Positions 1,075 to 43,455 of a DNA stretch of 64,000 bases are shown piece after piece. The notes below the pieces were generated by a model that was not told the origin of the DNA, made no database searches, and saw nothing but the letters and a program-made list of their open reading frames with translations. Origin of the DNA: a virus (Duplodnaviria; Heunggongvirae; Uroviricota; Caudoviricetes); IMG/VR virus record IMGVR_UViG_3300012933_000388, positions 1 through 64,000 of that record; one strand, written 5' to 3'. Within the stretch, counting starts at the first letter, position 1, and every line of letters starts with the position of its first letter. The translations under genes were made by a program, and so were the position numbers.

Positions 1075-1599
1075 ATGGAAACACTAGCACAACACATGAA
1101 GACACGTCACATGGACGTCAATCTCCACCACCCAGTATTGGATGAAGTGGAACGTGTTGCTACGTTCTATCTTTGGAACCTCAGTGGGCAGTTAGTTGGC
1201 TACCAACAATACAGGCCAGAAGGCGAGAAGAAGCCAAACAACAACCCACGAGAAGGTAAGTATTACACATACAGAAAGCAGCCTACGGTTGTTGTATGGG
1301 GTGTAGAATCGCTTCACCTTACACCGCATGTTGTATTCCTGACCGAGGGTGTGTTCGACGCTGCTAGGCTGACAGAACGTGGTGTTAGTGCACTTGCAAT
1401 CCTCAGTTGTAACACAGGCTGGGACTTACGCAACTGGTTAAGCATGCTCAATCGAAAGGTTGTTGCTGTTTGTGATGGCGATAAGGCAGGCGCGCAGCTT
1501 GCCAAGTTTGGTAATGTCAGTCTTTGTATGCTTGGGGGTAAAGACCTTGGAGATGCTGATGATGCGACTGTTGATATGCTAGTGAGGGAGTTTGTGTAA
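1075..1599 (+). CDS. Toprim domain protein (primase/topoisomerase-type fold)
   Basis: Conserved Glu in FLTEGVFDA and DxD in VCDGDKAG, then GGKDLGD. The longer ORF from 910 crosses the terminator, so ATG 1075 is preferred. Confidence 0.65.
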   Translation: METLAQHMKTRHMDVNLHHPVLDEVERVATFYLWNLSGQLVGYQQYRPEGEKKPNNNPREGKYYTYRKQPTVVVWGVESLHLTPHVVFLTEGVFDAARLTERGVSALAILSCNTGWDLRNWLSMLNRKVVAVCDGDKAGAQLAKFGNVSLCMLGGKDLGDADDATVDMLVREFV

Positions 1600-2210
1600 T
1601 GCCAGCCGTGCACCTATCAGGTCAACACAACGTAACATTCGTCCACATTCCTAAGTCTGCTGGTACTAGTGTAGGCAACTGGATAGTGGATCATGCTGAC
1701 GAGAGTGCTGTAATGTTGTGGTGGAATCATCCAACACTCGCTCAGATGAGACGTACTTGCAGTACCAACTTTTCAATTGCGGTGGTGAGGAATCCATGGG
1801 ACAGACTTGTTAGCATGTATCATTATGCTCAGTTTGGCACAAGTCCTCATCCAGCTATCGACTCTGATATGATTCACGAGATGTTTATCAGAGCAAACAA
1901 CTATAAGGTTTGGCCAACGTTCGATGAGTGGGTGTCCAACCTACCTTCATTCTACACTACACCAAACCAACAGGGCATGGATATGTCGCAGATGTATTGG
2001 ATTGGGGATGGAGTCGACTTGGTGATCAAGATGGAGACCATCGAACAGCAGTTTGAGGTGGTACAGGAAATGTTTAAGTGTGGTGATCCACTACCAAAGC
2101 AGAATACAACCAACCATGGTCATTATAGCAAATACTATGATGCTCGAACGAGAGATCTAGTTGCGAGATGGTTTAAGCGTGACATCGAAGCATGGCACTA
2201 TGAGTTTTAA
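1599..2210 (+). CDS. sulfotransferase family protein
   Basis: PAPS-binding 5'-PSB-like FVHIPKSAGTS and 3'-PB-like VRNPWDRLVSMY motifs. ATG overlaps the upstream stop. Confidence 0.65.
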   Translation: MPAVHLSGQHNVTFVHIPKSAGTSVGNWIVDHADESAVMLWWNHPTLAQMRRTCSTNFSIAVVRNPWDRLVSMYHYAQFGTSPHPAIDSDMIHEMFIRANNYKVWPTFDEWVSNLPSFYTTPNQQGMDMSQMYWIGDGVDLVIKMETIEQQFEVVQEMFKCGDPLPKQNTTNHGHYSKYYDARTRDLVARWFKRDIEAWHYEF

Positions 2211-40650: not shown

Positions 40651-41601
40651 ATGGCACATATGGTCGAGACGATGGCATACGCTGGTGAAACGCCATGGCA
40701 CGGTTTGGGCGTGCAGGTACCAGCAGACTTATCTCCAGCTCAGATGCTGGAAAAAGCTGGCTTGGACTGGACGGTAGAAAAAGTTCCTGCTTTCGCAGAA
40801 ATCGGCGGGAAAAAAACCTCGGTCGGCTGGAGCGCTCTTGTCCGTAGTAATGATGAGAAAGTATTGTCTGTAGTTTCTAATGATTGGAACCCGGTCCAGA
40901 ACCATGAAGCTTTTGAATTCTTCCATGAATATTGCGCTGTTGGTGATATGGAAATGAATACCGCCGGTTCTTTGCGTGATGGCCAGATCGTTTGGGGCCT
41001 TGCTAAAGTAAAACAGTCTTTTGAGCTCTTTAAGGGCGATACAGTCGAGTCATATTTGCTGTTTACTAACCCTCATAAGTTCGGTCAATCGATTGACGTC
41101 CGCTTTACACCTATTCGCGTCGTCTGTAATAACACATTGACGCTGTCACTCGAGCAAAAAGCCGACCGAGTCGTCAAGAAAAGCCACCGTACACAGTTTG
41201 ATCCTAACATGGTCAAAGAGCAACTTGGCATTGCAACGGATAAACTGGCAAAATACAAGGAAATGGCTCAATTCTTGGGTAGCAAGCGCTACAACAACGA
41301 GTCTCTGACCGACTATTTTAACAAAATCTTCCCTGTTATCGCATACAACAAGGAAAAAGGCCCCCAGCGTAAGATTTTATCTAAGTCTGCCGAGCGTGCA
41401 TTGGAAGTTATCCACACACAACCTGGTGCTAACTACGCTGAAGGTTCATGGTGGCAAGCGTTTAACGCAGTGACATACCTGACTGACCACGAAATTGGTC
41501 GCTCTACCGACACTCGTTTACAATCGGCATGGTTCGGACCCAATAAGAACCTGAAATTAAAGGCGCTGGAGACAGCAGTTGAAATGGCGGAGATGGCATA
41601 A
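40651..41601 (+). CDS. DUF932 / phage-plasmid-like protein (TIGR03299-type)
   Basis: N-terminal MAYAGETPWHGLG...AGLDWTVEK is the hallmark of the DUF932 family. Confidence 0.6.
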   Translation: MAHMVETMAYAGETPWHGLGVQVPADLSPAQMLEKAGLDWTVEKVPAFAEIGGKKTSVGWSALVRSNDEKVLSVVSNDWNPVQNHEAFEFFHEYCAVGDMEMNTAGSLRDGQIVWGLAKVKQSFELFKGDTVESYLLFTNPHKFGQSIDVRFTPIRVVCNNTLTLSLEQKADRVVKKSHRTQFDPNMVKEQLGIATDKLAKYKEMAQFLGSKRYNNESLTDYFNKIFPVIAYNKEKGPQRKILSKSAERALEVIHTQPGANYAEGSWWQAFNAVTYLTDHEIGRSTDTRLQSAWFGPNKNLKLKALETAVEMAEMA

Positions 41602-42882: not shown

Positions 42883-43025
42883 TGAAAAGCATGAAGCAAG
42901 CAGCTAATTTTAAGATGCGTGGTAGAATTACCATGCGTTGCCATTGCCGCTGCTGCGAGGTTTTTAATCCGAAGTGGGCATATCGTATGAAAATGGCTGC
43001 CAAGGATATAAAAGAATTGTTGTAA
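42882..43025 (+). CDS. small basic Cys-rich protein (47 aa)
   Basis: TAATG junction. CHCRCC motif. Ends immediately before the tmRNA acceptor piece. Confidence 0.35.
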   Translation: MKSMKQAANFKMRGRITMRCHCRCCEVFNPKWAYRMKMAAKDIKELL

Positions 43026-43080
43026 TCCCTTCAAAGAGAAGGACTTCTGGACGCGGGTTCGACTCCCGCCATCTCCACCA
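43026..43080 (+). ncRNA. ssrA: tmRNA acceptor piece (3' half of a permuted ssrA gene); 5' boundary uncertain
   Basis: GCGGG-TTCGACT-CCCGC T-arm, 3' acceptor strand CATCTCC and encoded ACCA (43077-43080). Complementary to GGGGATG at 43219. Confidence 0.8.
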
Positions 43081-43218
43081 AAAGTAATCACCGAAGTGAC
43101 TAGGAATAAAAGCGGTCATCGAGTTAGGGCATCAGGTCAAGACTGTGTTAGTAGTGTGGACAGCCTCCCTAACCGACCACTAAGGCGAGTGGTTGAGAAT
43201 GCAACGATTACTTTTGAT
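43081..43218 (+). other. structured intervening segment of the permuted tmRNA precursor
   Basis: AAAGTAATC (43081-89) pairs with GATTACTTT (43206-14). Internal helices GTTAGGG/CCCTAAC and ACCACT/AGTGGT. Confidence 0.6.
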
Positions 43219-43455
43219 GGGGATGCCATGGTTTCGACAGGGGTAGATATTAGAGACGGCAACACGGTAGGCGATGACCGCAAATCAAGCAAATAAAAGT
43301 AACTGCAAACGAAAGCTCTTACGCATTGGCAGCCTAAACGCTGACTAGGGTTTCGGATGGTTTCCTCGTAACAGAATAACCATCCACTAATATATCAGAC
43401 ACGTTGCCCATTAGAGGCCCTGTATGGTCTAGCAGTACCATCAAAGAAACTGCTA
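43219..43455 (+). ncRNA. ssrA: tmRNA coding piece (5' half of the permuted ssrA gene); 3' boundary uncertain
   Basis: GGGGATGCCATGGTTTCGACAGGGG 5' end. Tag ORF GCAAACGAAAGCTCTTACGCATTGGCAGCCTAA (43305-43337, ANESSYALAA*). Helix 43355-62/43378-85 and H-type pseudoknot 43424-43455. Confidence 0.8.

Follow-up and report, generated by a model that had tools for sequence, protein, structure and literature searches.

In its permuted tmRNA gene, a T4-like phage separates the encoded CCA from the mature 5' G by 138 nt, which raise a simple question: does this spacer serve only the maturation of the tmRNA, or does it also deliver an RNA of its own? Two-piece tmRNA genes of beta-proteobacteria were reportedly described by Keiler et al. 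in 2000 and by Sharkady and Williams in 2004. The intervening sequence (IVS) of two-piece tmRNA genes has so far been treated as disposable, and Rfam models represent it by an unstructured loop. Already published are permuted tmRNA genes with their IVS, along with two isolated examples of an IVS with cargo (PMC11915505), and two-piece tmRNAs in aquatic myophages (PMC9004378). We analysed the spacer within a 64-kb stretch of phage DNA, referred to below as the window, together with its relatives in other genomes.

Boundaries of the spacer and its tmRNA gene

The source phage is T4-like; the window encodes gp32, gp59 and the late-transcription coactivator, and its gp32 gene shares approximately 69% DNA identity with cyanophage gp32. 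Two Rfam models, tmRNA_permuted (RF04321; 147.5 bits versus a gathering threshold of 47; 43018-43337) and beta_tmRNA (RF01850; 140.1 bits versus a gathering threshold of 84; 42974-43397), matched the locus, and ARAGORN reported a permuted tmRNA with the tag (VT)ANESSYALAA*. The parts of the gene follow one another in permuted order, namely T arm, acceptor 3' strand, ACCA, IVS, acceptor 5' strand and tag-bearing body. Rfam, ARAGORN and our own parsing place the acceptor piece at 43018..43080 (+), where it includes the P2 3' strand, the T arm (43053-43069, +), the acceptor 3' strand CATCTCC (43070-43076, +) and ACCA (43077-43080). The coding piece (43219..43397, +) comprises the acceptor 5' strand GGGGAUG (43219-25), the tag (43305-43337) and a 3' hairpin. 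The acceptor strands GGGGAUG and CAUCUCC contain the G3.U70 alanine identity pair, and a G.U at acceptor pair 3 was present in all 44 of 44 sequences. The tag frame resumes at GCA and ends in ALAA followed by a stop codon (ANESSYALAA*, 43305-43337).

As the encoded CCA ends at 43080 and GGGGATG begins at 43219, the IVS occupies 43081..43218 (+). These results show that 43081-43218 is the IVS of a functional-looking, beta-type permuted two-piece phage tmRNA gene, and the initial annotation of the region as the spacer of a permuted tmRNA precursor is thus confirmed by Rfam, ARAGORN and the CCA and 5' G boundaries. Its description as unusually long holds in comparison with bacterial beta-type genes, in which the IVS measures 23-42 nt; among related phage and metagenome contigs, the window IVS ranks 49 of 53 by length (recorded as the '49th longest'). 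Its position, flanked by the encoded CCA on one side and the mature 5' G on the other, is that of the beta-type IVS described previously (PMC11915505), and like that IVS it would be missing from the mature RNA.

A closing helix and leader shared with bacterial genes

The ends of the IVS form a helix, P1. Its 5' arm, AAAGUAAUC (43081..43089, +), lies directly 3' of CCA and pairs, with a probability of 0.56-1.0, with the 3' arm GAUUACUUU (43206..43214, +). In the DNA, AAAGTAATC (43081-89) and GATTACTTT (43206-14) are exact complements, and the chance probability of a perfect 9-bp complement at the fixed P1 register is approximately 4e-6. The last 4 nt, UGAU (43215..43218, +), make up a 5' leader with U at -1 that lies opposite ACCA, with which three pairs and a C.A mismatch are possible. 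Through this ACCA/UGAU pairing, C.A mismatch included, the predicted precursor fold contains a near-continuous helix of approximately 20 bp in which the acceptor stem is prolonged into P1.

Relatives were gathered via the neighbouring 279-aa protein, the conserved tmRNA 5' arm, and ARAGORN together with our own parser, giving 78 loci with 53 distinct IVSs of 23-385 nt (median 79). When IVS nt 1-12 were compared with nt -5 to -16 in 44 distinct IVS constructs, the P1 register was paired in 89.8% of cells, a value that none of 500 shuffles reached and that compares with 42-61% in slid controls, and compensatory changes on both strands occurred at 11 of the 12 positions. Nearly all IVSs open with AAAG or a close variant directly 3' of CCA, and most close with CTTT-TGAT or a near variant immediately 5' of G1. 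The next 5-8 positions beyond AAAG vary among IVSs yet remain complementary. TGAT precedes the mature 5' G in 45 of the 53 distinct IVSs, and T stands at -1 in 52 of them. Bacterial RNase P prefers U(-1), and the near-universal U at this position fits that preference; we infer that UGAU is an RNase P leader.

The earlier proposal that the complementary ends extend the acceptor stem is thus borne out, both by the exact complement and by covariation across 44 IVS types. P1 would fold the insert back on itself, bringing the two acceptor strands together and allowing formation of the tRNA-like domain. In the initial annotation, a processing scaffold and an independent small RNA had been offered as alternative readings of the spacer. 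The scaffold reading holds for the closing helix, and the two readings are therefore not mutually exclusive.

In beta-type genes of Rhodocyclaceae, among them those of Dechloromonas, Azonexus and Thauera, the IVS consists of a hairpin alone, 23-42 nt long, for example AAGGACAUUC-GAG-GAGUGUCCUU plus a leader of 4-5 nt or AAGGACATTC-GAG-GAGTGTCCTT-GCGAT. A pattern scan of genome contigs returned 120 matches, most of them one-piece tmRNAs, and yielded approximately 15 permuted beta-type genes. Most bacterial beta-type IVSs consist of an 8-10 bp helix and a 4-5 nt tail ending in T, and the corresponding elements of the window are the 9-bp P1 and UGAU; as in the Rhodocyclales-type hairpin frame, the helix starts from the first IVS base and U stands at -1. 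The window IVS thus resembles those of Dechloromonas, Azonexus and Thauera in its closing hairpin (AAG-R-CAU...) and its short leader ending in U. However, it is approximately five times longer than the bacterial IVSs of 23-42 nt, a conserved three-hairpin module takes the place of its hairpin loop, and this module also exists outside tmRNA genes. Since the bacterial IVS is a bare hairpin, the phage IVSs are expansions of the hairpin loop. As far as sequence comparison reaches, these data show that P1 and the 4-nt UGAU leader are a conserved IVS frame of the gene family, and that this frame goes back to the bare hairpin that makes up the IVS in Rhodocyclales-type bacteria. In the cultured phage Melnitz, the IVS (MZ577095.1, approximately 44.96-45.10 kb) measures 142 nt and follows this design, UAAACACUU...AAGUGUUUA UGAU, with an insert unrelated to that of the window. 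The bacterial hairpin frame may already have been described in the founding two-piece tmRNA papers; those two papers aside, no description of the conserved P1 and UGAU frame was found in the literature searched.

A conserved RNA module in the interior

Three further helices are predicted inside P1. In the minimum free energy (MFE) structure given by RNAfold, helix A (43092..43121, +) pairs CGA..UGACU (43092-94 and 43097-101) with GGUCA.UCG (43114-121) around a 12-nt loop. Helix B (43123..43173, +), formed by GUUAGGG (43123-29) and CCCUAAC (43167-73), encloses a variable apex with the hairpin B2 (CAG, 43133-35, and CUG, 43143-45; +). Helix C (43174..43195, +) pairs CGACCACU (43174-81) with AGUGGUUG (43188-95) across the loop AAGGCG, with a pairing probability of 0.94-1.0. 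In addition, AGGC in loop C (43183-86) and GCCU (43163-66), just 5' of the helix B 3' strand, constitute a pseudoknot candidate. The interior repeats listed in the initial annotation fared differently. GTTAGGG/CCCTAAC (43123-29/43167-73) and ACCACT/AGTGGT (43176-81/43188-93) are exact complements, and the former pair is helix B, which covaries in the IVS family. TCAC-cgaa-GTGA is likewise present as a complement at 43088-99, but its pairing probability is 0.0 and it is not structural; this hairpin competes with the closing helix and helix A.

The 116-nt interior without P1 had a folding-energy z of -1.0 (34 of 200 shuffles) and the whole IVS a z of approximately -2, and a longest stem of at least 7 arose by chance with P = 0.17 in shuffles. 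With an interior z of -1.0, folding energy alone leaves the matter undecided and, without homologues, would have led to the wrong answer. The earlier description of the spacer as highly structured can thus be upheld by comparison with homologues but not by folding energy alone.

An IVS identical to that of the window (138/138 bases) occurs in locus L063, and three diverged relatives share 70-91% identity with it, two in other tmRNA backgrounds and one free-standing. The family derives from the IMG samples 3300012933, 3300046367/313/319, 3300046779 and 3300034065. Variant V2, recovered from three samples (L231, L232 and L233), is 142 nt long and 87% identical to the window IVS. V3 (L235; 141 nt, 87% identity) lies in a gene with a different acceptor stem, CAGGTCC/GGGCCTG. 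The free-standing V4 (L242:14503-14636), also present in L243 and L244 and thus in three independent assemblies, is 71% identical and scored 106 bits (E = 3.6e-28) with R1, our covariance model of the module. It was first met cut off in L234 and was recovered whole via its DUF932 neighbour. V4 belongs to an array of 24 tRNA genes, where it has tRNA-Leu(caa) on one side and, on the other, a small ORF and then tRNA-Ser; its flanks contain no T arm or CCA upstream, no GGGG..GGTTTCGAC downstream and no adjoining tmRNA pieces. R1 was built including the window sequence, so that the score of 159.5 bits for the window IVS, with helices P1-A-B(B2)-C and conserved junction sequences, is high by construction; independent support for the model comes from V4 at full length, since the training alignment did not include the 3' P1 arm of that copy. 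Two IVS cargos stand in tandem in L235, with an alanine-type minihelix (GGGCCUG-CAAUG-CAGGUCCACCA) between them.

A first viral pattern scan that included the T arm gave no match, one interior 18-mer matched only the identical L063, and a 20-mer scan of metagenome contigs gave no match. By these early exact-pattern scans the interior looked unique or present only as an identical copy; scans with other 18-mers recovered the diverged relatives. Neither the IVS nor the free-standing variant had a match in GenBank phage genomes, even at E <= 10. In Rfam (15; riboswitches, ribozymes, sRNAs and group I introns), only the tmRNA models matched the window IVS at E <= 10, and nothing better than E = 1.7 was found for the free-standing copy. 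The module RNA was absent from the contigs with DUF932 homologues (P0003, P0005, P0006 and P0014).

Across the four variants, helix B carries substitutions at pair 1 (GC to AU), pair 4 (AU to GC) and pair 6 (GC to AU), and pair 5 appears as GC, GU, AU or UA; four pairs are thus altered on both strands and none is disrupted. Hairpin B2 takes the forms CAG/CUG, CCAG/CUGG, CGGG/CCCG and CAGUA/UACUG. In V4, helix C is one pair shorter, with G-C as the loop-closing pair, a register change that retains pairing, and has one mismatch at its outer end; P1 is kept as AAAAUAAUC/GAUCAUUUU, in which pair 4 has changed from G-C to A-U and one A.C mismatch is present. The other differences are confined to loops and junctions and to the variable apex of B. 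The stem of helix A is invariant in all four variants, its loop ranging from 12 to 8 nt with one A/U position, and as the stem never varies there is no covariation for or against it. Helix A, most of C and most of P1, being invariant, are thus neither supported nor refuted within the family. In the counted alignment, which was fitted to the model and has low statistical power since it holds only four distinct variants, 95.2% of cells were paired (26-49% in slid controls), four pairs covaried (5 of 500 shuffles), three of them in helix B, and the covariation score was 0.135 versus 0.064 (2 of 500). RNAfold, run independently on the window, V2 and V3, gave the P1/A/B/C fold each time; in V4 it kept B, B2 and C, and the MFE structure swapped P1 and A for an alternative pairing. 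In V4, the positions of the pseudoknot candidate read UGGU/ACCA in place of AGGC/GCCU. It was found post hoc and is thus a lead only, by which the module possibly contains a loop-C pseudoknot.

According to the initial annotation, a lack of covariation in related phages would have spoken against these helices; P1, helix B and the apical hairpin all covary. Sequence comparison among the variants shows that the interior, with helices A, B (B2) and C, is a discrete and conserved RNA module, which has an evolutionary history separate from that of the tmRNA and occurs with and without one. No description of a conserved RNA family inside the IVS, of a free-standing copy of an IVS RNA in a tRNA array or of cassette-like diversity of the IVS slot was found in the literature searched.

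Exchange of inserts and possible roles of the module

The 53 IVSs fall into approximately 42 unrelated insert families, some with small ORFs. Many of the approximately 42 other IVS types have unremarkable folding energy, so that an IVS need not carry a functional RNA. In the pairs L051/L060, L048/L052 and L057/L062, tmRNA bodies that are 85-95% identical contain unrelated IVSs, and L057 and L062 break exactly at the AAAG and CTTTTGAT borders. Conversely, near-identical IVSs occur in otherwise unalignable genomes (L050/L053 and L001/L062). The window and L063 have an identical IVS, yet their other tmRNA parts are 37-94% and their neighbouring proteins 40-63% identical, whereas L063 and L231 have IVSs only 87% identical and, by eye, nearly identical sequence from the IVS to the tag. 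This contrast indicates reassortment of IVS modules, for which recombination between the near-identical tRNA-like arms is the simplest route. An assembly chimera joined at shared flanks of 38 and 57 nt could instead account for the identical IVS of the window and L063; conserved arms (31-57 nt identical) can mislead assemblers, and a flanking-protein search for strain variants of the window phage yielded short Logan contigs alone, which break off at the tmRNA on either side of the IVS. V3 and V4 are independent of this caveat. The L001-type IVS contains a 62-aa ORF with no relatives in Pfam, PHROG or GenBank phages and only one near-identical cluster in 5.8 billion proteins, and its coding status rests only on two synonymous and two conservative differences.

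Since the interior is a conserved folded RNA that also stands alone among tRNA genes, the spacer probably delivers a separate RNA, and the free-standing homologue in a phage tRNA array favours the independent-RNA reading. By analogy with T4 rnaC/rnaD or 3'ETS-leuZ, this is most likely a stable small RNA set free by tRNA-type processing. We propose the following scenario, which we consider reasonably probable, for the conserved frame and its module. The module would be co-transcribed with the tmRNA, released by an RNase P cut 5' of G43219 and by 3'-end processing after A43080, survive as an RNA of approximately 138 nt because P1 sequesters both ends, and act in trans. With the module transcribed and released in this way, the tmRNA gene would serve as its expression and processing vehicle. 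No promoter was found within the IVS, and no complementarity of at least 13 nt was found between the IVS and the rest of the window.

Species 1 and 2 of T4 (rnaC and rnaD) are small stable RNAs of 139 and 119 nt encoded among T4-type phage tRNA genes, and they mature together with the tRNAs. The free-standing copy of the module has a setting like theirs, by analogy only and with no detectable homology: R1, run with filters off over T4 69.5-74.5 kb, gave no match at the rnaC/rnaD coordinates, and homology was rejected. The 3'ETS-leuZ of Escherichia coli, reportedly characterized by Lalaouna et al. in 2015 as a short Hfq-dependent sponge, is a functional RNA that arises as a by-product of processing a tRNA-type precursor. 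Unlike 3'ETS-leuZ, the window module is multi-helix, approximately 138 nt long and paired at its ends; no target or Hfq-type features were identified in it. Among published permuted genes, one from a nominally archaeal MAG carries a tRNA-Ala in its IVS, and another, with a repetitive element in its IVS, is the longest gene in the database (PMC11915505). Such cases demonstrate that an independent RNA gene can reside in an IVS, but they are single curiosities, whereas the cargo described here is an undescribed RNA family and the slot is systematic in a phage lineage, with approximately 42 insert types. In phage Melnitz, a glutamine riboswitch lies beside the two-piece ssrA (PMC9004378), a comparable case of a structured RNA in physical linkage with a permuted phage tmRNA gene; unlike the window module, however, it sits 3' of the tmRNA (L254:5147-5195) and not in the IVS.

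The IVS might instead be a processing scaffold or neutral filler, in which only P1 and the leader matter, serving acceptor-stem folding, RNase P and 3' trimming, while the interior is a tolerated hairpin-loop insertion that is degraded after excision and owes its conservation to recent shared ancestry and lateral transfer. The modest folding energy of the interior (z = -1.0), internal stems no longer than expected by chance (P = 0.17), the bare bacterial hairpins, the spread of the relatives' interiors over approximately 42 unrelated families of 23-385 nt and the clean swaps at the AAAG/CTTTTGAT borders (L057 versus L062) all speak for this. However, all substitutions in helix B and B2 keep pairing in variants down to 71% identity, and the module persists with its own P1 in a tRNA array, a setting without an acceptor stem to scaffold, which makes filler rather unlikely. 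We regard as less probable still a cis-acting regulator, a ligand or temperature sensor that times precursor cleavage and hence tmRNA activity. Conserved unpaired segments, the covarying loop-C pseudoknot candidate, the ACCA/UGAU pairing, whose approximately 20-bp helix would mask the RNase P site, and the glutamine riboswitch directly 3' of the Melnitz tmRNA (PMC9004378) point in that direction, but the free-standing copy has no attached tmRNA to regulate, and no Rfam riboswitch or ribozyme matched even at E <= 10.

Inverted IVS termini, the identical IVS in a distant phage and cassette-like exchange could also suggest a selfish element, MITE-like or of homing type, with P1 as its terminal inverted repeats and the CCA/5'-G junction as its target. 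Such an element seems very improbable: the termini are not conserved but differ and covary from one IVS type to another, each genome region has a single copy, with no further one across the 64-kb window and approximately 1.1 Mb of related loci, neither a transposase nor a target duplication was seen, the hairpin was already present in the bacterial ancestor, and recombination via the near-identical tRNA-like arms suffices for exchange. Hardly credible is translation of the open frame at 43096-43296 (66 aa), even though the frame exists and some other IVSs carry plausible small ORFs. Its GTG start lies inside helix A with no visible ribosome-binding site, its last 26 codons are a tmRNA-body frame (..DGDAMVSTGVD..RKSSK) that is open in many relatives, and neither Pfam nor PHROG gave a match. 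Indels of 3 nt and 1 nt between the IVS variants break the frame, and substitutions follow helices, not codons. The initial annotation had already considered a protein product unlikely, and the ORF, given the frame shared with the tmRNA body and the indels, is an artefact.

Beyond the release of a small RNA favoured above, we can only tentatively extend the proposal, with somewhat less than even confidence, to the phage tmRNA IVS as a general cargo slot, in which the window module would be a trans-acting RNA that has a new biochemical function and folds into a complex structure, a multi-helix junction together with a pseudoknot. The tRNA-like arms would then act both as punctuation for RNase P and 3' processing and as recombination arms, and the tmRNA promoter would drive diverse small structured RNAs and micro-ORFs that are then excised and exchanged among phages. 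The tandem cargos of L235 and the copy of the window module in a tRNA array are consistent with such a slot.

Within one widespread group of T4-like phages from fresh water, the IVS thus combines a conserved frame with the capacity to carry its own conserved RNA, and the module provides a concrete candidate for a new small phage RNA that can be put to the test. This suggests a cheap way for phages to express accessory RNAs, through attachment to tRNA-type processing signals, and offers a new angle on the long-unexplained species 1 and 2 RNAs of T4. The locus also bears on annotation, since ORF callers put false genes across phage tmRNA IVSs, and assemblies break at the conserved arms or may turn chimeric there.

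Content of the intervening sequences

The intervening sequence (IVS) of the permuted tmRNA gene holds, in some related loci, cargo other than the RNA conserved in the window. In the metagenomic locus L235, a sequence reading of positions 1500-1960 (minus strand) revealed a tandem arrangement of cargos, located downstream of a strong predicted sigma-70-type promoter. The array starts with a tRNA-like acceptor piece followed by a first IVS cargo of the window's family, a 7-bp minihelix, GGGCCTG-CAATG-CAGGTCC-ACCA, in which G3.U is present, and a second, unrelated IVS of approximately 130 nt. This second IVS is followed by GGGCCTGCCATGGTTTCGACAGAC, without a tag region, and further on by a second, complete permuted tmRNA carrying a third cargo, of the 105-nt type found in locus L051. 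Judged from its sequence, the L235 array looks like an operon in which alanine-type acceptor helices separate the cargo RNAs as punctuation.

Small ORFs fill some of the IVSs and start directly 3' of the 5' arm of P1, the helix that closes the IVS (..AAGAAAATT ATG). The ORF-bearing IVSs are 200 nt long in loci L001, L049, L062, L069, and L105, 115 nt in L087 and L110, 88 nt in L093, 208 nt in L106, and 385 nt in L007. The L001-type ORF would encode 62 aa and stops at the TGA within the TGAT leader, and its L001 and L062 versions differ by two synonymous and two conservative changes. Of the nine codons that differ between L087 and L110, five do so synonymously; their predicted peptide is rich in Cys and His, and its frame continues into the 5' end of the tmRNA. 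The ORF of L093 would encode a hydrophobic peptide of 26 aa, and those of L106 and L007 would encode 61 and 113 aa, respectively. The two ORFs tested, of 62 and 113 aa, were without relatives in Pfam, PHROG, and GenBank phages.

Reading frame and assembly at the tmRNA locus

The frame ..DGDAMVSTGVDxRDGNTVGDDRKSSK* is open through the 5' body of the tmRNA at 43219-43296 of the window and in the same region of many loci, and in many relatives its stop codon lies a few bases 5' of the resume codon. This open frame leads to spurious ORF calls running out of the IVS.

The Logan contigs L238 and L239, independent assemblies of the window's own phage, break around the IVS: they stop approximately 155 nt past the upstream gene (about 43037 of the window) and resume within the 3' part of the tmRNA (about 43326). 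The breaks were likely caused by the conserved tRNA-like arms, which are 31-mers common to co-occurring phages, and they warn of chimeric joins at this locus.

Genomic surroundings of the RNA region

Both in the window and in L242, the contig with the free-standing copy of the module, the RNA region is preceded at a distance of 1.5-3.5 kb by a gene of the DUF932 family (TIGR03299-type; window 40651-41601, L242:10001-10969). Downstream of it are the tmRNA in the window and a tRNA array with the free-standing module in L242; the site of the module, a tRNA/tmRNA region, is thus roughly syntenic. In the same array, as represented by contig L234 (517-642, minus strand), an Rfam tRNA match (46.9 bits) spans 126 nt, from which an insertion of approximately 50 nt was deduced, and ARAGORN made no call there. 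This gene could be an intron-containing or a disrupted tRNA beside the free-standing RNA.

No tRNA gene is present in the 64,000 nt of the window. In approximately 30 of the loci L001-L047, which belong to related phages, a tRNA with a CUA anticodon (amber suppressor; labelled 'Pyl' by ARAGORN) is located near the tmRNA and the Zn-ribbon protein gene, for example at L011:3835-3908 and L026:3722-3796, and may indicate TAG recoding or suppression in this phage group.

Intervening sequences in Melnitz and in bacteria

In the cultured phage Melnitz (L254), the 142-nt IVS (L254:4826-4967; MZ577095.1, about 44.8-45.0 kb) has the same frame as that of the window, UAAACACUU...AAGUGUUUA plus UGAU; the two-piece tmRNA of Melnitz is of the alpha type. 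The published glutamine riboswitch of Melnitz (L254:5147-5195; PMC9004378) lies directly 3' of the tmRNA, outside the IVS.

In L128, L135, L152, and L208, metagenome-assembled genomes of Accumulibacter and other Betaproteobacteria or Pseudomonadota, a spacing of only 3-4 nt separates the T arm, acceptor, and ACCA from a downstream GGGGGTG..GGTTTCGAC. These genes contain either a minimal, hairpin-less IVS or two tmRNA pieces joined in tandem; if this is real, processing would not everywhere need a closing hairpin.
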